Source of the DNA: Naegleria gruberi
Taxonomy: Eukaryota
Assembly (NCBI GenBank): GCA_000004985.1
Contig: GG738925.1
Length of the DNA: 64,000 bases
Direction: 5' to 3' (one strand)
In this document: piece by piece, positions 8,316-22,252 of the stretch
How positions within the stretch are numbered: position 1 is the first letter of the stretch
Layout: each line of letters opens with the position of its first letter
Made by a program: the position numbers and the translations under genes
The notes under the pieces: model-generated
Seen by the model: only the letters and a program-made list of their open reading frames with translations
What the model was told of the DNA's origin: nothing
Databases searched by the model: none

Positions 8316-10617
8316 TTATCTAATGTAACAATATTTGTACCAATATCTTTCGAATATTTCAAATGTTTCTGGAAGAGATTCTTTGAACCATTGATAGAAT
8401 ATAGGATTGTGTCTACTCAATACAACAACCTTTGATTTGATGCGAGGTTCGATATCAGTAGGAATCTTTTCCTTAGATGTCAAATATTCGAAATGAGTGG
8501 CATCTGCTGTATAATCAAACAATATTCTCAAATTGCAAACATCTTGATTTGGATTAGAATTCAGCATTGAGGTCAAGAACTTTCTATCCTCTTCGCATTT
8601 AGGTTGAATTCGTTTCAGGTCTTTAGTCATGAATCCATTCGAAATACTAGTGCTTTGTAAATTCATGAGAAATTGCTCAGGATGAATTGCACTATTAATC
8701 ATCTTGGCTCCACATGTTATTATAAGTGGTTTCTGATCCGATTTAATTGGTTGTCCCAATAATAATCCATCCCACCTCAAATTAATATCCAAACTTGTTC
8801 CATAAAATGAGCTAATATCAATATCTGTAAATTTGTAATCATATTTGTGAGATCCAATTAATACTTTCCAAATATCCTCACTTTGAATAAGCATTAAATT
8901 AGGGTTGAGTGTAAAATTGCAAAGAAATGATTCTTCACTATTTGATGATTTGAAAAGCACATGATCTGTGAGTGGTTTTCCATTCAATTCTCTTGAAATC
9001 TTAGCCATTACCAATCCACAAACTATTTCAATAGCAAATCCTCTTTCATTTGTATCAGATCTTTTCAAGACTTTCTTAAGCCAACTATTGGAAACTCGAA
9101 TGAGATCCTCCAAATTTAGTGCCTTGTTAACTGAGTACATTAGTAGCGGCTCAGGTATCTTGTAATACTGTGAAGAATCTGATAATGAAGGCACTGTAAA
9201 AGCCAGCTCATTATTAGTAATAAAATTGAGAAGAGACAGGTGATTCACTCCTCTTGTTACCAGTCCCAATTGATGATTCAACTCGTCTACGTTGATAAAT
9301 CCCCTTAGTGAAAGATTTTGCATCACATCATTTTTCAAAGATGCCACATCCATATCTTTCGTATTCATATCGTTGAGACATTTCTTATACATTGAATAAT
9401 GTGACTGTATAACATTCTCCAGAGATGATGTAAGCATTCTAGTTGACCACTCTTCAAGTGAAGTTTGTGATGAATCAAATGGAGGACAAGCTATAATACT
9501 TTCCAACCATTCAAATAATATTCCTCTTCTTCCCTTTGCCAAACTGGCTAAAATTTGCACATACGAATCAGGTAAAACCTTTTTCACATTCAACAGCTTA
9601 TCAATAAAATTGTAAACCTCACTGGAACCAACCACTCCATATCCTGAGATAATTTGATAATCTCTCTTCAATTCTCCAGTCAGGTGTCTAATTGAGCTTT
9701 GTGAAATATTACTACCAGATATAATAGCACTATTGTGAGGATAGGAGAGAAGACTATTGAAAACCTTTCCAATCAAAGTGGAAGGATCCAGCTTACTCTT
9801 GGTTTTACCATCATTTAGAGTTCCAATCACTCCCATATCATCAATGCCGAAAATCAAAGGTTTTTGACCAATTTTTTCACGAATAGTCCTTTGTAAATAT
9901 TTGAATAATTTGTAAGATTCAAAATGCACATTGGCTGTCTCGTATTCCAGTAATTGTTTGAAGACACTATTGAAATGTTCTCTTCCAATTGCACTATTTA
10001 CATAAATCCACCAATTAAAAGGAGTAAAATTATTTGGATTGTTTTTCAAAAGGGTTTGCATTAGGATGAGTTGAGAATTATAAATCATGAACAAGAGTTC
10101 AGTTGAATTGTGCCGACTCTGTTTCTTACCATGTGTCGACTCTACCTCTAAGAAACTCGCTAATAAGGTTAGAATGGCATCACTTGCCAGACCCAGCTCA
10201 ATATTCAACAAAAATGCCGTATTAGTACAAGCAATGTGTGAAATGGAGAAGGATTTTCCACTTCCATGGGGCGAATTGAGTATGTACATGGCTCCTTTTC
10301 TATCACTTTCCTTAATCTTGGTTTGTAAATATTGATGAATGTTTAGAATTTCATTCTCAGAGTTTCGTTCCTGAAAAGATTCAATCAATAGTGGATAGAA
10401 CCTCCAATCTAATCCAGAACTCGTGAATGGCCAAGGATTTTTAAACAAACCTCCCAACTGTTGTTTCAATTTCTCGTCTTTCAAAATTTCACACAATCAG
10501 AACTATTTTCAAAACAACTTACTCTCACTCTTAAAAGCCATTTCCTCAATTGATTTCAATTCTGAGAATTTCTTTACAATATCCACACCACTCGTTACTC
10601 TATGTATCACATAATCC
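8316..10617 (-). CDS. Large P-loop-like protein of unknown function (2 exons)
   Basis: The 726-aa ORF 8316..10496 has no ATG at its 5' end (TTG). An upstream exon, MDYVIHRVTSGVDIVKKFSELKSIEEMAFKSE at about 10617..10522, ends at a gtaagt donor. An AG acceptor at about 10476 (intron about 10521..10477) restores the frame into EKLKQQLGG.... A Walker-A-like SPHGSGKSF and a Walker-B-like LIFGIDDMG are present. The exact splice coordinates are approximate. Confidence 0.5.
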
Positions 10618-13235: not shown

Positions 13236-16026
13236 ATGACAGAACCAACAGTTTCTAATACACCATTAGATTCGAATAGATTCGGTATGTCATCCACAAC
13301 TACTTCTCAACCTCCACCATTAGCACTTCAATCCAATAACAGCAACATCATGAATAATAGTAATAGCAATAATAATAATAACTATAGTCAACATGTTTCT
13401 AATAATTTCATCCAACTTTCAGAACAACAACAAACAAATTCGGGAAATCAAAATATTGGGATTCTCGATATTCTCAGTGGAGGTGGTGGAAATCAACAGT
13501 TAAAAGGAAGTTCTATTCCATTCTCTTCTTCAAATAATAATAATCAAACAGTACCAATTTCATCATCAAATTCTATTCGAAATTTGTAAGTTTAGTTTCG
13601 GATAACATTTTTCATAGACCAAACAATAATTTAATTATTATTACAATTAACATTTGAATAATAGAAATCCATCTGCTAGAAAATCCCTCCCTTCCACTTC
13701 TACTCTCTCTCCCTATCACATACAATCGTCCAATTTAAACGATTCGTCCTTTTCACCTCGTTTCGCCAGACAATTCTCTCAACCACCACTTTCCTTTGTA
13801 AATGAACAAGATGCCTCCAATATGATGATGGGAAATAACGAAGAATTATCAGGTGGAGAAGAGGAATTAGAAATGACACCTCAACAAGCTAAAACTAACG
13901 ACCAACAAAATGGTCAACCAACTTCTTCTAATGGTAGTGGAAATAGTAGAAGAATGAATTATGCATGTACAGAATGTAGAAAAGCACACAAAGCTTGTAC
14001 TGGAGAAAGGTTTGTTATTTGCTAATTGATATCAATTTTGTTTACATGTGATTCGTCAACTTTCATTTTATTGTTGCGACCATGTGCGCTCGTCATCCTT
14101 TTATATTTATGTATTGTGGTAATATGGAATGACAATGTGTGAATTTAAATGTACCATCTTTGGACAACTGCTTTCATTGCTAATATTTTACAATTTTTCT
14201 GAATTTTTCACAAATTCACTTTTCAATGAATCTTCAAATTCCCTTAATTATTAATAATAATAATAATATTGAAATAATTTAATAGACCTTGTGATAGATG
14301 TAAAAAATTGGGAATGGAAGACAAGTGCAAGAGTACCATTCGTAAAAAACGTATTCTCACCAAGAGATATTGGGTTCATTTCATGTCCAACGATGGCAGT
14401 AATAATACCAACTCAATGATGGATGATAGTAGTGCTGGGGATCAATCACCAGCAAGTATTCATCAGCAAGCTTTCTTTCCTAATGTAGGTGCTGGTGGAC
14501 CACAAATGGGAAATGCTAGAAATGCCTCAATGAATTTCAAGAGACACTCTAGTGCTAATTTACCATCCTTCTCATCTATTAAGAGATTGAATCAAGGATT
14601 GAGCGGAGGCAGTTCAAATAGTATGAGCTCATTCCAAGGTAGTGAAATAATGTCAACAAGTGACGCTTCAATGCTCAATCCAAATGAATATAATAACATG
14701 TACAGTGGTGATCGTTCTCCAAGACAAGTTCCTCACTCTTACAATTATCATCCCTATAAGAGTCCACGTGGTCAGCATCCAGAGCAAGTAATGGATCAAT
14801 CCTCTCCAAATCAAACTCTTCAAAACAACAATGGTATGAATCCAAATAGTGGCTTTAGTCCTAGAAATAGTTTTAATAGAGCTGCCTCATCATCTCAAAT
14901 TCCAACTCCATTGCAACAACAGCAACAAAATGGGAGTTATGGCTTCTCTGGAAATGTTGCATCATTGGATGCCTATCGATTGGATGGAAAGATACCAACT
15001 GGTAATTCAAATACCAATTCTGTGGAATCCTCTCCAAGAGAGAGTGGAGTTTTGAATCATTTGAATATGAGTACATTTAACAATTCTATTGGATCTCAAT
15101 TGGATCCACAAACTGTAAATAGACATTACAATAGAGGAAGTATGAGAATTCAACCACTTTTCAATCAGCATACCAAATCCTTGTCAGATACCAACTTGTT
15201 ACCATCACCTTCCATGTTATTGGATCATCAACGACAACAATCCATGTTTAATTTCCCATCTCATCAACAAACCAATAATACTAATGGTAATATTAATAAT
15301 AACAGCATGGCAATGGATGAATTTTCAAATGGTAATAATCAGAATAGTCATCAACATCATAATTTACACATTCCTCCAATCATGCTTGAAAAGAATCCAA
15401 ATATTCCACAATTTACCATTCAACCATCTCCAAATCACTCAAACAATTCCAATTCCAATACACCAAGAAGTGGCATATTCTTTGAAAACTCTCCTCGAAG
15501 TGGCAATAATATGGGAAGTGGTGAATACTATTACTCTCCTCGAAGTGAAGTGGACTACTCTTCCGACATGTCCTCTCTCACTAACAGTCCACGTTTTGGA
15601 ACTGGTGGAGGAGCTGATTCCAACTCCAGCACTCCACGTAGTTTGATAGGAAGTATGAATACCATGTCCATCAATGATTCCTCACCTCTCGCTCAACAAT
15701 TATCTGCTCAGCAGCAATATCCACCTGGATATAGAGGAAGCTTACATTATGACTCTCCCTCATTGATGGTTCCTGGTAATAGAAAGTCAGTGGCTGGATA
15801 CTTGAATCAGGCAGGTAATAGATTTAGTTTGGGGTCGGCTTACCATGGATCTGCCTATGTACAACAGCAGCAGCAACAGCAATCGAATGGTCTCTCACTT
15901 CCAAATTCTACTTCTCCCTCCACATCCACAACAACATACACCAATCATCCAGGAAATAGGTATAGTTTAGGACCTAATCAGGATTTATATCAATACTCTA
16001 CGAGGTCTAACAATTTTAGAAAATAA
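13236..16026 (+). CDS. Zn(II)2Cys6 (GAL4-type) zinc-cluster transcription factor with long N/Q/S-rich low-complexity regions, 3 exons
   Basis: Exons are 13236..13585, 13665..14009 and 14286..16026. Introns are 13586..13664 (gtaagt..aatag) and 14010..14285 (gtttgt..aatag). The spliced protein contains ACTECRKAHKACTGERPCDRCKKLGMEDKC, the six-Cys binuclear cluster, which is split by intron 2. Confidence 0.75.
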
Positions 16027-16704: not shown

Positions 16705-18069
<1,365 letters not shown>

Positions 18070-18270: not shown

Positions 18271-18389
18271 GGCTACGGCCATATCACGATTCATGCACCT
18301 CATCCCGTCCGATTTGAGAAGTTAAGCATCGTCGAGCCACATCAGTACTGAGGTTGGAGACAACTTGGGAACCTGTGGTGCTGTAGTCT
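18271..18389 (+). rRNA. 5S ribosomal RNA gene (copy 1)
   Basis: 119 nt: ggctacggccatatcacgattcatgcacctcatcccgtccgatttgagaagttaagc...gtactgaggttggagacaacttgggaacctgtggtgctgtagtct. Helix I pairs 5' ggctacggc with 3' gctgtagtc. The conserved CCGTCCGAT, GTTAAGC, AGTACT, GGAGAC and GGGAA blocks are present. A T5 Pol III terminator follows immediately. Confidence 0.85.
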
Positions 18390-18393: not shown

Positions 18394-18476
18394 AATTTCA
18401 TTTTAATTTCAACAATTTGTTAGGTTTTATTTACAATGATTTGCCTAGGTTTACAAAATTTTGAGTTATATGGAGA

Positions 18477-18725
18477 TTACCACTTTTTGAATTGTTTGTT
18501 TCTCATTTCTAAAGTATTATGTGATTGAGATTTGGAAGTTTTACTTGTTTCACTTCCAATAGAATTCAATGTTTTGTAATCAATTAAATTTCTTTTTCTT
18601 GTTCCTCCAACAATATTATCCATAGAAATTTCGGAATTAAATTGTGAGGAGGAATTATACATATTTCTTCTTGTTGAGACCATTTTCTTATTGTTGTTTG
18701 TTTTCTTTTGTTTGTTGATTTTCAT
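18477..18725 (-). CDS. Small basic protein (82 aa), paralog A
   Basis: MKINKQKKTNNNKK...IVGGTRKRNLIDYKTLNSIG.... It shares a GTR(K/H)RN(L/N)IDY(K/H)..LN motif and overall layout with the divergently transcribed ORF at 18911..19207. Confidence 0.45.
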   Translation of the reverse strand: MKINKQKKTNNNKKMVSTRRNMYNSSSQFNSEISMDNIVGGTRKRNLIDYKTLNSIGSETSKTSKSQSHNTLEMRNKQFKKW

Positions 18726-18910
18726 TAAATTTCCTTCATCAAAATATTAATAGAAAAATTCAAACTTCTTGTGATGAGTGGAAAATCCACTAAAAATCGG
18801 AATCACAAAATTAGTGGAAATCATCACGGAAATAAATAGATAATTGTTCTAAAGGATGATGAAATTTCCAAAACAAAACAAAACAACCTAATAACAAACC
18901 TAAGAGCAAA

Positions 18911-19207
18911 ATGCCAGCAAGAAATACTTCATCAAATTCTTCTTCATCTTCCAAAGATAGAATTCCAACAAAAACAGTCTGGTCAAGATCTAAACCAATT
19001 GATTTATCTAAAAGATTACCATTATTTGATATTGATACATCTAATATTATAAGTGGAACTAGACATCGTAATAATATTGATTATCATTATGCAAATTTAA
19101 ATGGTAAACAAATTTCAGTGAAAAGATCATCGAAAAATTCAATTGAAAAGAGAGCTAAACAATCAACCACCACATCTAAGAAGATTACGAAATCGAAAAA
19201 GATGTAA
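18911..19207 (+). CDS. Small basic protein (98 aa), paralog B
   Basis: ...IISGTRHRNNIDYHYANLNGKQ...KRAKQSTTTSKKITKSKKM. It is a paralog of 18477..18725 with the same conserved core and a K/S-rich tail. Confidence 0.45.
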   Translation: MPARNTSSNSSSSSKDRIPTKTVWSRSKPIDLSKRLPLFDIDTSNIISGTRHRNNIDYHYANLNGKQISVKRSSKNSIEKRAKQSTTTSKKITKSKKM

Positions 19208-19590
19208 ATTACAACTTGTAAATAATTCAGTAAATTGTAAATAAAATAATTTTGAAATAGATGAAGTTTCAATTTAGAATTGATCAGAATATGAGAAACC
19301 AAAATTTGGATCAAGCAATTCACATGGCAAAAGTTCAATAAATAGAAGGGTGATCAACCTTTTCAATTTACTCAACAACCTGTTATTTGAACACAACAAG
19401 ATTCGTCCAGAACTCTTGCCTTCACTGTTCATACAGTCAAAGACTGTAGCGGGATTGTCGCCATATTCCTGGCATGCTTCCCGTCTACAATTACAAAATG
19501 AATTAACAATGGAAAGACAAACAACAAATCTTATTTACTTGAAACTTATTCATTTTTTCAATTTATTATTCATTGTATTAAGGCAATAAA

Positions 19591-19618
19591 TGGCTACGGT
19601 ATATCGTTTCATAGAGTT
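19591..19618 (+). pseudogene. Degenerate 5S rRNA 5'-fragment
   Basis: atggctacggtatatcgtttcatagag aligns to the first ~30 nt of the 5S genes (atggctacggccatatcacgattcatgcac), with indels and no 3' part. Confidence 0.25.
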
Positions 19619-19935
19619 AAACATTGATTTTGAGTAATGAATAGCTGTACCCAAACCATTTTACAAGTATTAAATTTTTCCAATAATCACCTTTTAATTC
19701 AAAACCATTAAGAGTCAAATTGCATTCAATTCACGAACAACAAGTTAAAATTCAGTATTGCATGTACTTACTAAACATGAACCAATTTTGTGTCCAGAAA
19801 CAAAAATCGGTTCATCGAAAGAATTTCTTTGCAGAAGAACTACTTTCTAAAAATATATAACTCTCAAACAGTTTAAAGCAAGGAACTGTTTTGAATTCAA
19901 GAAAAACCATTAAGAAAAACAGGACAACAAACATA

Positions 19936-20394
19936 ATGCAATTATTTGTCAAGACACTCACTGGAAGAACTATCACTTTGGAGGTTGAATCTAATGATTC
20001 AATTGAAAATGTGAAAAGAAAAGTGCAAGATAAGGAAGGAATTTCACCAGATCAACAAAGACTCATCTTTGCTGGAAAACAATTGGAAGATGGCAGAACT
20101 ATTAATGATTACAACATTCAAAAAGATTCAACTCTTCATTTGGTGTTGAGATTAAGAGGAGGAATGCAACTTTTTGTAAAAACTTTAACTGGAAAGACAA
20201 TCACTATTGAAATGGAATCGAATGATACTGTTGAGAATATGAAACAAAAGATATTTGATAAGGAAGGTATTCCTTCAGATCAACAACGATTGATTTATGC
20301 CGGTAAGCAATTGGAAGATGGAAGAACTATTGGTGATTACAATCTTCAAAAGGATTCAACTGTGCATTTAGTATTGAGATTGAGAGGTGGTTAA
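19936..20394 (+). CDS. Two-unit polyubiquitin-like gene with divergent repeats
   Basis: Two 76-aa units each end in LRLRGG, and the stop follows the last GG directly. Unit 1 is [76 protein letters not shown]. Unit 2 is [76 protein letters not shown]. The ORF extends 15 codons upstream in frame ([15 protein letters not shown]), so start-site choice is uncertain. Confidence 0.85.
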
Positions 20395-20661: not shown

Positions 20662-20780
20662 GGCTACGGCCATATCACGATTCGTGCACCTCATCCCGTC
20701 CGATTTGAGAAGTTAAGCATCGTCGAGCCACATCAGTACTGAGGTTGGAGACAACTTGGGAACCTGTGGTGCTGTAGTCT
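20662..20780 (+). rRNA. 5S ribosomal RNA gene (copy 2)
   Basis: 119 nt, identical to copy 1 except for one substitution (gattcGtgcacc). A T6 terminator follows. Confidence 0.85.
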
Positions 20781-20848: not shown

Positions 20849-21298
20849 TCATTTCATAAAAGTTAAACATTTTTCAATCATTGACTTTTCATCAATTTCA
20901 CTCTTGGTTGAACAGTGAATTGTTGCACTCAAACCATTTAATTTTTGTTTAACTGTTTTTACAGTGGCAGCAACTTGAAACTTTTCCTTAACATTGGTGT
21001 CGTTTGGACACCATGTGATAAACATCATTTTCGTTCTGATTCCTTCCCTGAGTGAAGTTTCGTTTTGGGATGGCATTTCGAAACTTAAATGATAGCAAAT
21101 GAAACGGGAATTCTTTGGTGGAAGATTAGCAGTCAATTCATCCAATGAAGAGAGTTGAGTCAATTCTTGATCTATTTGAAGGGAACTTTCTTGCATTTTT
21201 AATACCAGGAACTTTTTATCCTTATTCGAACCCTTTCCCATTCTCATTTCTTCATAGGTTTTGATAATTTCATCACTGAATTGACAATTAAGCATCAT
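20849..21298 (-). CDS. Glia maturation factor (GMF)-like ADF-H domain protein
   Basis: 149 aa. LVLKMQESSLQIDQELTQLSSLDELTANLPPKNSRFICYHLSFE and MMFITWCPNDTNVKEKFQVAATVKTVKQKL align to GMF ([33 protein letters not shown] ... [25 protein letters not shown]). Confidence 0.65.
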   Translation of the reverse strand: MMLNCQFSDEIIKTYEEMRMGKGSNKDKKFLVLKMQESSLQIDQELTQLSSLDELTANLPPKNSRFICYHLSFEMPSQNETSLREGIRTKMMFITWCPNDTNVKEKFQVAATVKTVKQKLNGLSATIHCSTKSEIDEKSMIEKCLTFMK

Positions 21299-21570
21299 TT
21301 TGATTAGTTTGAGTTGTTTAGTTGTTTAGATATTTGTTTTGTTGTTGTTTTTCAAAAGTTTCGAACACAATGCAAGTATTTATATTTATTTTGAAGTGGA
21401 CTAGTTGCAATTTGGGAGTAGAGAGGAGACAATTTTGAAAGATTGGTTGTGCATTAACCAATAGAATTGTTTCAAGTTTGATTGATAAGCGGAAATAATT
21501 TGAAAGATAGGCAAGGAACTTGGAACTTTTTTAAAAGGAATTTTTTTTTGAAAAATGAGAGTGTCAAATC

Positions 21571-21815
21571 TTTGATTATTTTCTCGATGGTTTTAAGAGA
21601 TGAAACTTTGAAAATTGATATTTAGCTAGATTGCATTTCATTCCTCCTATGATTAAAAAAGTAAAACTCAAACATTGGGATAAGGCACGAATCTTTATTT
21701 ATTTTCTCAGTGGTTTTAAGAGATAAAACTTTGAACATTGAAAAATAGGTAGATTACATACTATTACCTCTATTATGAAAAAAGCAAAACTCAAATATTC
21801 CAGAAAGAGTCAAAA
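21571..21815. repeat. Two tandem ~123-bp repeat units immediately 3' of tRNA-Asp
   Basis: Unit 1 is about 21571..21693 and unit 2 about 21694..21815, roughly 80% identical. Both have the shape tt(t)attttctc(g/a)(a/g)tggttttaagagat(g/a)aaactttgaa(a/c)attga...agatt(g/a)cat...aaaaaag(t/c)aaaactcaaa(c/t)att. Confidence 0.5.
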
Positions 21816-21822
21816 ATTATGA

Positions 21823-21893
21823 CTCGATTGCCGGGAATTGAACCCGGGTCGCCAGAGTGACAGTCTGGAATGCTACCACTATACCACACCCGA
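21823..21893 (-). tRNA. tRNA-Asp (anticodon GUC)
   Basis: The reverse complement is tcgggtg tg gtat agtggta gcat t ccaga ctGTCac tctgg cgac ccggg ttcaatt cccgg caatcga g. The D arm is AGTGGTA and the T arm GGGTTCAATTCCC. The 5-bp anticodon stem has a 7-nt loop with GTC at positions 34-36. The acceptor stem has one G-A mismatch (5:68). No CCA is encoded. Confidence 0.7.
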
Positions 21894-22252
21894 TTTCACA
21901 TGAATTATTACAACAGACTTTGACATTATATTTGGAGAAAATTTATTGAAACTTCCATTTCAAAGTTGCAATCAGTTTAAAAAAACAAATCATCACATAC
22001 CATAATGAAGAGAACATTTGGAACACGCTGAGAAGGCAATAGGTTTGGTTTCACTATTATATTTGAGGCATGTAGTGTAATTCTAACATCACGATCAGCT
22101 CATTTCTCTGAAGTGTTGGTGGCGTAACTCCACCCATGCCTTTTTACACACCAATTTTTGGATTATTATTTCTTGTAACATGCAATTTCTTGATTATTAT
22201 TTGTTGTAAAATGCTGAATTTCCAGCTTTCTGGAGAAAAACAGTGAAAAAAA

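Follow-up and report, generated by a model that had tools for sequence, protein, structure and literature searches.

What do two short open reading frames, which start head-to-head in the space between two 5S rRNA genes of Naegleria gruberi, encode, and are they genes at all? The window considered here is a stretch of 64,000 nucleotides from contig GG738925.1 (assembly GCA_000004985.1), with a GC content of ~33% and standard stop codons. A sequence-only reading had singled out this pair as divergently transcribed paralogues for small basic proteins, had judged that these look nucleic-acid-binding and had stated that it could not assign a family. As argued below from their conserved motifs, the two products probably belong to chromatin, as miniature proteins of an uncommon type.

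A conserved divergent gene pair

The arrangement itself had been reported correctly: the coordinates and strands of the two open reading frames, the gap of 185 nt between their starts (18726..18910) and both quoted peptides were all recovered from the window. The features of the two genes, denoted A and B, are as follows.

18477..18725, minus strand: longest open reading frame of A, 82 aa
18477..18683, minus strand: coding sequence of gene A from the conserved Met, 68 aa (MVSTR/MVCTR start kept in all species; dN/dS)
18684..18910, no strand: shared intergenic region, putative bidirectional promoter (conserved blocks, e.g. AATCACAAAATTAGTGGAAATCATCA)
18911..19207, plus strand: coding sequence of gene B, 98 aa (homologues with 59–93% identity in N. 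gruberi, N. lovaniensis and N. fowleri as well as in metagenomes; dN/dS 0.11–0.29)
18425..18437, minus strand: 13-mer ATTGTAAATAAAA with poly(A) signal, 40 nt past the A stop
19234..19246, plus strand: 13-mer ATTGTAAATAAAA with poly(A) signal, 27 nt past the B stop

The second ATG of the longer frame (M15, window position 18683) is probably the true start of A, which would then be a protein of 68 aa, because the MVSTR/MVCTR start is conserved across the A family in all species; with this start, the Met-to-Met spacer between A and B in the window is 227 nt. The same head-to-head orientation is found at all eight full loci (the window; L001, L007 and L008 of N. lovaniensis; L002, L003, L005 and L006 of N. 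fowleri), and the distance from the conserved Met of A to the Met of B is 227–260 nt at all of them.

That A and B are paralogous, as had been proposed, is borne out by a BLASTP alignment with 21 of 47 residues identical (E 3e-8) and by an hhalign comparison of the A-family and B-family profiles (probability 95%, E 3.3e-8, 44 columns). The core that they share is confined to these two frames, as judged from a regular-expression scan of all six frames of the 64-kb window. Both products are, indeed, basic (pI 10.3–10.9; K+R 12–22 versus D+E 5–6), with Ser, Thr and Asn accounting for ~37% of each.

Selection on the encoded proteins is evident from the ratios of nonsynonymous to synonymous change (Nei-Gojobori method). 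For A, dN/dS is 0.08–0.43 overall and 0.08–0.17 among the N. lovaniensis and N. fowleri copies; the respective values for B are 0.11–0.29 and 0.11–0.21. At moderate divergence both genes fall within 0.08–0.29, and comparisons against the window copies, where dS is saturated, give about 0.2–0.4. The reading frames are preserved across three species at about 8 loci. Taken with the paralogy statistics and the cross-species conservation, these values well below 1 sustain the earlier judgment that a motif shared by two such short frames is not a product of chance; the pair is also conserved in related genomes, being kept under the same constraint in N. lovaniensis, N. fowleri and metagenomic relatives.

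The 13-mer ATTGTAAATAAAA, which contains AATAAA, occurs exactly twice in the 64 kb, once per gene, with 0.03 copies expected. Within the A–B intergenic region, TATA-like tracts face each gene, and conserved blocks are visible in the cross-species alignment A3 despite the saturated dS. Thus, since the pair is conserved, dN/dS is low, the start of A is conserved and an identical 13-mer follows both stops, we conclude from the sequence comparisons that A and B are real protein-coding genes under purifying selection.

Assignment of the shared core to the CHZ family

The sole conserved features of the products are the CHZ motif, the S-x-N-T-L-E-x-R motif and, in B, the N-terminal W-x-R-S-x-P-I-D-x-x-K-R motif, which are located as follows.

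18576..18632, minus strand: CHZ motif of A, EISMDNIVGGTRKRNLIDY (Pfam PF09649)
19028..19084, plus strand: CHZ motif of B, DIDTSNIISGTRHRNNIDY (Pfam PF09649; alignment with yeast Chz1 EIDTSNIITSGRRTRGKVIDY and rice OsChz1)
18495..18524, minus strand: second shared motif of A, SHNTLEMRNK (consensus S-x-N-T/S-L/I-E-x-R)
19121..19153, plus strand: second shared motif of B, KRSSKNSIEKR (same consensus, S-x-N-T/S-L/I-E-x-R)
18980..19021, plus strand: N-terminal motif of B, WSRSKPIDLSKRLP (consensus W-x-R-S-x-P-I/V-D-x-x-K-R)

The first motif shared by A and B reads N-I-[IV]-x-G-T-R-x-R-x-x-[IFV]-[DN]-Y; the second, S-x-N-[TS]-[LI]-E-x-R, sits about 15–25 residues after it, and its S, N, E and R are invariant across the A and B families. 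The W-x-R-S-x-P-I/V-D-x-x-K-R motif is kept in the B family and in the wider family of small proteins described below, and is absent from A.

A family could, after all, be assigned. B matches the Pfam family PF09649 (Histone chaperone domain CHZ) with 25.0 bits (gathering score 23.3, E 1.3e-5). The score of A, 17.1 bits (E 0.0037), lies under the same gathering score of 23.3, and A is counted as a CHZ protein because it is paralogous to B. PF09649 is the top family (at E<=1) for every A and B sequence from Naegleria (15 of 15, the lowest E being 1.1e-6) and for 17 of the 23 members of the wider family; a scan of window A and B at E<=10 returned no Pfam family other than CHZ.

Searches of all PDB sequences point in the same direction. 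With the profile of the A/B family, yeast Chz1 (2JSS_B, 6AE8_C, 8QZ0_K) is among the top matches; with the wide-family profile, rice OsChz1 (6M2M_M) ranks first, its alignment running into the basic stretch upstream of the motif, and yeast Chz1 (2JSS, 6AE8) is again among the top matches. These PDB matches are individually marginal (E 0.09–0.46), and the motif spans only ~20 residues; the alignment falls exactly on the CHZ motif. A single-sequence phmmer search of the PDB with B gave no match, Chz1 and OsChz1 being reached by profiles only. A 53BP1 UDR peptide (5KGF_L, E 0.37), also returned by the PDB profile search, is a weak match that we take as noise.

At the residue level, the profile alignment pairs Chz1 LAEIDTSNIITSGRRTRGKVIDYKK with B LFDIDTSNIISGTRHRNNIDYHY, and B LFDIDTSNIISGTRHRNNIDY is aligned to yeast Chz1 92-LAEIDTSNIITSGRRTRGKVIDY. 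A hand count on the profile alignment of B DIDTSNIISGTRHRNNIDY with Chz1 94-115 EIDTSNIITSGRRTRGKVIDYK gives ~14 identities in 20 positions; the residues common to B and yeast Chz1 include seven consecutive ones, IDTSNII, plus SG, R-x-R and IDY. In the CHZ motif of A and B, the acidic half is down to two acidic residues and the G-T-R-x-R...Y half is invariant.

Judged by these Pfam and PDB profile searches, the shared core of A and B is a CHZ motif, that is, an element that binds H2A(.Z)-H2B dimers, so that the label "nucleic-acid-binding" is not supported in the form in which it was given. Histones are, therefore, the primary predicted ligand of A and B; the basic tails could also touch DNA. 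The CHZ motif has been described as a common device of eukaryotes for the interaction with H2A/H2A.Z-H2B (PMC6544321). In HIRIP3, this motif is indispensable for the binding of H2A-H2B, lying on H2B alphaC and reaching H2A alpha2 (PMC10854748), and OsChz1 has been modelled on the nucleosome's disk face, toward the acidic pocket (PMC7658359).

Predicted function of A and B

AF2 modelling with the family alignment (mean pLDDT 59.7, pTM 0.16, no residue at >=90) indicates that a globular fold is lacking, as would fit a disordered chain that bears short linear motifs; the prediction thus matches the intrinsic disorder of the free protein that is a feature of the Chz1 type. In the mechanism envisaged here, the Arg-rich half of the CHZ motif (GTRxR...Y) would dock on the acidic H2A alpha2/H2B alphaC surface of H2A-H2B or H2A.Z-H2B, as in Chz1, HIRIP3 and OsChz1. 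The shared intergenic region would function as a bidirectional promoter for balanced expression of A and B and, in combination with the multiple gene copies, would provide for high and balanced output, as in divergent histone gene pairs. The resulting abundant proteins would act on or beside DNA-bound histones, either as binders of the nucleosome face or as dimer escorts, in an HMGN-like manner.

We consider it rather probable that A and B are a co-regulated divergent pair of paralogues for CHZ-bearing accessory proteins, chromatin-bound or escorting histone dimers, rather than for classical acidic chaperones. The accessory role is preferred to that of an acidic chaperone because the acidic, DNA-mimicking tracts and the DEF/Y cap are missing and the net charge is positive. 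As far as the motifs can tell, the most likely ligand of A and B is H2A(.Z)-H2B, which they may contact on the face of the nucleosome, and not nucleic acid as such. Within this chain of reasoning, the steps that establish real genes and the CHZ motif are much more secure than the distinction between a chromatin-bound protein and a chaperone.

Histone binding is not free of difficulties. A strongly basic partner for the basic histones would be atypical, and the acidic regions that supply much of the affinity of Chz1 (PMC3395605, PMC6544321) are missing in A and B. The consistent linkage to 5S genes could hint at a role related to RNA or the ribosome. Furthermore, A taken alone is under the Pfam gathering score, the PDB matches are marginal and the motif comprises ~20 residues.

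Should the kinship with Chz1 be closer than we suppose, A and B would be the Naegleria orthologues of this soluble H2A.Z-H2B chaperone, shielding free dimers from DNA and handing them to SWR1. The CHZ motif is held in common, and A and B are disordered like Chz1 (PMC3395605), but they are without the acidic N-helix, the acidic tract, the DEF/Y motif and anything like the H2A.Z-specificity element, and their pI is 10.3–10.9; it is these flanking elements that give Chz1 its preference for H2A.Z and that dissolve histone-DNA aggregates in assays (PMC6544321). In particular, inspection of A and B for a Chz1-type acidic tract or DEF/Y found no D/E run followed by F/Y (D+E 5–6 versus K+R 12–22). The multi-copy, paired genes are also unlike the single-copy CHZ1, and orthology with Chz1 appears unlikely, although it retains some weight.

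Linkage to 5S rRNA genes and two conserved elements

The surroundings of the A–B pair in the window include the following features.

16714..18069: beta-tubulin gene, intronless
18271..18389, plus strand: 5S rRNA gene, 88 nt past the A stop and convergent with A (Rfam RF00001, 100.3 bits)
19393..19490, listed on the plus strand, strand uncertain: element X, ~95 nt, small-RNA-like (conservation and hairpins)
19586..19610, plus strand: truncated remnant of a 5S 5' end (ATAAATGGCTACGGTATATCG...; forms direct repeat D6 together with the beginning of the intact 5S)
19891..20394, plus strand: di-ubiquitin-like gene
20662..20780: second 5S rRNA gene (Rfam)
20849..21298: cofilin gene
21823..21893: tRNA-Asp
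22062..22145, minus strand: element Y, conserved block of ~85–150 nt

The position of the pair between two 5S genes, which had been noted before, is confirmed by the genes at 18271..18389 and 20662..20780, and it recurs in part elsewhere: a 5S gene lies within about 90–700 bp of the pair at seven of the eight loci, on either side and on either strand, and L008 has no 5S within 6 kb. The remnant at 19586..19610, located downstream of B and of element X, includes the upstream ATA[A/T]ATGG context, which suggests a decayed third copy of 5S. The linkage of the A–B pair to 5S was not found addressed in the titles and abstracts of the literature on Naegleria 5S rRNA, among the matches listed.

Element X of the window is 94% identical to its N. 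fowleri counterpart over 64 nt, being conserved better than the coding genes, and contains three hairpins with compensatory changes in each. Further copies are found at L005 (9152..9225), L006 (9044..9153), L001 (13228..13350 and 14473..14570), L007 (8307..8390) and L008 (5229..5292). X probably represents a small RNA gene specific to the lineage, occurring in clusters with 5S genes and the A–B pair. Element Y, with copies at L005 (8906..9059) and L006 (10726..10882 and 8718..8874), is located in N. fowleri ~70 nt upstream of 5S genes, and in the window ~170 nt upstream of tRNA-Asp; its sequence can form a GGTGG...CCACC hairpin as well as a closing stem, GGCAAG/CTTGCC, and Y may represent either an upstream element for Pol III or a gene for a small RNA. 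Neither X nor Y has a match in Rfam, permissive thresholds included.

Two further observations concern the neighbors. The gene at 19891..20394 (plus strand) encodes two ubiquitin-fold repeats in tandem, both clearly distinct from canonical ubiquitin; their DNA sequences share only 77% identity. A gene of the ubiquitin family likewise adjoins the pair at L007 of N. lovaniensis, which may mark L007 as the locus orthologous to the window. Directly beside tRNA-Asp there is a 110-nt tandem direct repeat (21567..21676 and 21690..21799) with 81% identity between its units.

Could A and B be small basic proteins that bind RNA or reside in the nucleolus, with a functional tie to 5S rRNA or to the biogenesis of ribosomes, their likeness to CHZ proteins being coincidental? 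The 5S genes within 90–700 bp at seven of eight loci, the presence of X and Y and the basic, S/K-rich composition would fit such a role. However, the conserved positions are exactly those of the CHZ consensus (IDTSNII, SG, R-x-R and IDY with yeast Chz1) rather than those of a generic basic tract, and the Pfam searches of A and B found no RNA-binding domain; besides, adjacency to Pol III genes is not functional evidence, and L008 is without a 5S gene within 6 kb. We hold this reading to be improbable and continue to prefer that of A and B as CHZ-bearing accessory proteins; what it explains least is why the genes are coupled to 5S and to two structured elements.

Copies, relatives and origin of the pair

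Other genomic copies exist, at least 6–7 B genes per genome in N. lovaniensis and N. fowleri; specifically, B is present at no fewer than six distinct loci (at least 6) in the former, under at least 7 locus tags in the latter and in at least 2 copies in N. gruberi. The homologues comprise the two annotated N. gruberi copies (~90% identity), those of N. lovaniensis (66%) and N. fowleri (59–64%) and several metagenomic sequences. Gene A lacks an annotation at all seven loci examined in N. lovaniensis and N. fowleri, and only two database proteins match it, both without names (one from an ENA metagenome assembly, the other from an SRA-run assembly). A literature search on the locus tags of the genes found no paper.

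The N. gruberi model NAEGRDRAFT_69990 (P0004, XP_002674900.1), 116 aa long, departs from the other B proteins after ...SIEKRTK and continues with an unrelated hydrophobic tail, which probably reflects a falsely predicted intron or a mis-modelled 3' end. Some A copies are decaying. At L002 of N. fowleri, A contains an in-frame TAA (9612..9614) where the otherwise identical segmental duplicate L003 has CAA (Gln), so that the stop reflects a nonsense mutation of very recent date or else a mistake in the assembly; in the metagenomic contig L004, most of A is deleted between short TTCA repeats.

A profile search of 1.84 billion representatives retrieved 31 proteins at E<=1e-3, most of them basic and 70–150 aa in length. 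The motifs of this wider family follow the order W-x-R-S-x-P-[IV]-D-x-x-K-R, CHZ, K-R-x-S-x-N-T-x-E-x-R. Its named members are all heterolobosean (Willaertia magna, Acrasis kona and a third Naegleria subfamily), the rest being metagenomic. Some members are longer (287–488 aa), with acidic regions and an extra uncharacterised C-terminal domain. The third Naegleria subfamily (P0038; FDP41_004574 of N. fowleri and C9374_008568 of N. lovaniensis), encoded outside the window, is a lysine-rich protein of 117 aa with a three-motif module of the CHZ type; a similar, longer protein is found in Willaertia (P0026). P0030 is the antisense translation of a B gene fused to an A gene, and the head-to-head pair is therefore present in a further, more divergent relative. 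P0016, returned by the search of representatives, is a false positive with bacterial Ig repeats. A word-indexed search for longer Naegleria CHZ proteins with Willaertia P0027 returned only the query, and a scan of metagenome contigs with the B-family alignment gave 156 pattern matches, none of which was confirmed.

The genes next to the pair vary: tubulin in the window, actin-ARPC4-Sec8 at the orthologous loci L001 and L002, actin at L003 and others at L005–8. Such dispersed copies with differing flanking genes might suggest that the cassette itself is a mobile element, or was once carried by one, and that A and B are encoded by this element. Yet the paralogous loci share no homology past the two stop codons, the cassette is bordered by no terminal repeats, whether inverted or direct, A and B contain no transposase or RT domain, and the paralogues are old (dS 0.15–0.43) yet constrained (dN/dS 0.09–0.21); the synteny of actin, ARPC4 and Sec8 between orthologous loci of N. 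lovaniensis and N. fowleri likewise indicates stable loci. Because of the limits of homology, the lack of terminal repeats and the age and constraint of the paralogues, we reject a mobile origin as very improbable. The reading of A and B as chance open reading frames with an accidental motif, to which the frequency of short frames in AT-rich intergenic DNA of 30% GC and the missing annotation of A in every genome examined might lend color, is refuted by the paralogy (E 3e-8), the homologues, conserved pairs and conserved frames in other species, dN/dS well below 1 and the Pfam match, and hardly any credence is left for it.

Implications

So far, work on CHZ proteins has dealt only with histone chaperones that are large or acidic (Chz1, HIRIP3, plant Chz1). 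By their sequences, A and B are a conserved multi-copy family that carries the CHZ motif in tiny basic proteins. Separation of the histone-docking element from the acidic shield predicts a different action, namely, binding on or together with DNA-associated histones. If this prediction is true, Naegleria would offer a minimal natural peptide system for studies of H2A-H2B recognition. On the genomic side, annotators have overlooked gene A at every Naegleria locus examined, those of the 'brain-eating amoeba' N. fowleri among them; one N. gruberi gene model is flagged as faulty; and a recurring genomic module joins A and B to 5S and to two conserved RNA-like elements.

A bolder picture can be drawn, which we offer as quite unlikely to hold in full. 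Here, A and B would be the protist counterpart of the HMGN-type binders of the nucleosome face, built independently from a CHZ motif stripped of its acidic chaperone parts and made in stoichiometric amounts, as a pair, from a bidirectional cassette like that of histones, which was co-amplified with Pol III/small-RNA genes (5S, X and Y). The pair may specifically organise the chromatin of those clusters, and the small basic three-motif form seen in Heterolobosea and metagenomes might be the ancestral state of the CHZ module.

Comparison with known systems

Yeast Chz1 is a protein of 153 aa encoded by a single-copy gene. This H2A.Z-H2B chaperone (PDB 2JSS, 6AE8, 8QZ0) has the CHZ motif and intrinsic disorder in common with A and B. 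In Chz1, acidic regions flank the motif, and there are a C-terminal DEF/Y motif and H2A.Z-specificity elements (PMC6544321), none of which occurs in A or B; A and B are, in contrast, basic, paired and multi-copy.

The CHZ proteins HIRIP3 of mammals and OsChz1/AtChz1 of plants bind both H2A-H2B and H2A.Z-H2B and are without the specificity elements of the yeast type (PMC10854748, PMC7658359, PMC6544321). HIRIP3 (556 aa) and OsChz1 (extending beyond residue 446) both have Glu-rich or acidic regions, and OsChz1 binds via an acidic surface, whereas A and B, of 68 and 98 aa, are net positive.

The vertebrate HMGN proteins are small, basic and disordered; a short Arg-containing motif docks on the acidic surface of nucleosomal H2A-H2B, and the basic tails lie near DNA. 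The comparison with A and B is one of working principle only, with no sequence relationship, and nucleosome binding by A and B is hypothetical; the HMGN core RRSARLSA is absent from the A and B sequences, for which Pfam (E<=10) gives CHZ only.

Divergent histone gene pairs (H2A-H2B, H3-H4) and 5S-linked repeats combine head-to-head orientation, a short shared promoter, dispersed copies and linkage to 5S. The likeness to A and B is one of arrangement only: A and B are not histones, and, instead of pairing members of different families, the two genes are paralogous to one another.

The small basic proteins of Willaertia magna and Acrasis kona, Naegleria FDP41_004574 and the metagenomic proteins have the same tripartite module (W.RS.P.D..KR, CHZ, KR.S.NT.E.R); among the genomes inspected, the paired arrangement is seen only for A and B of the Naegleria type.
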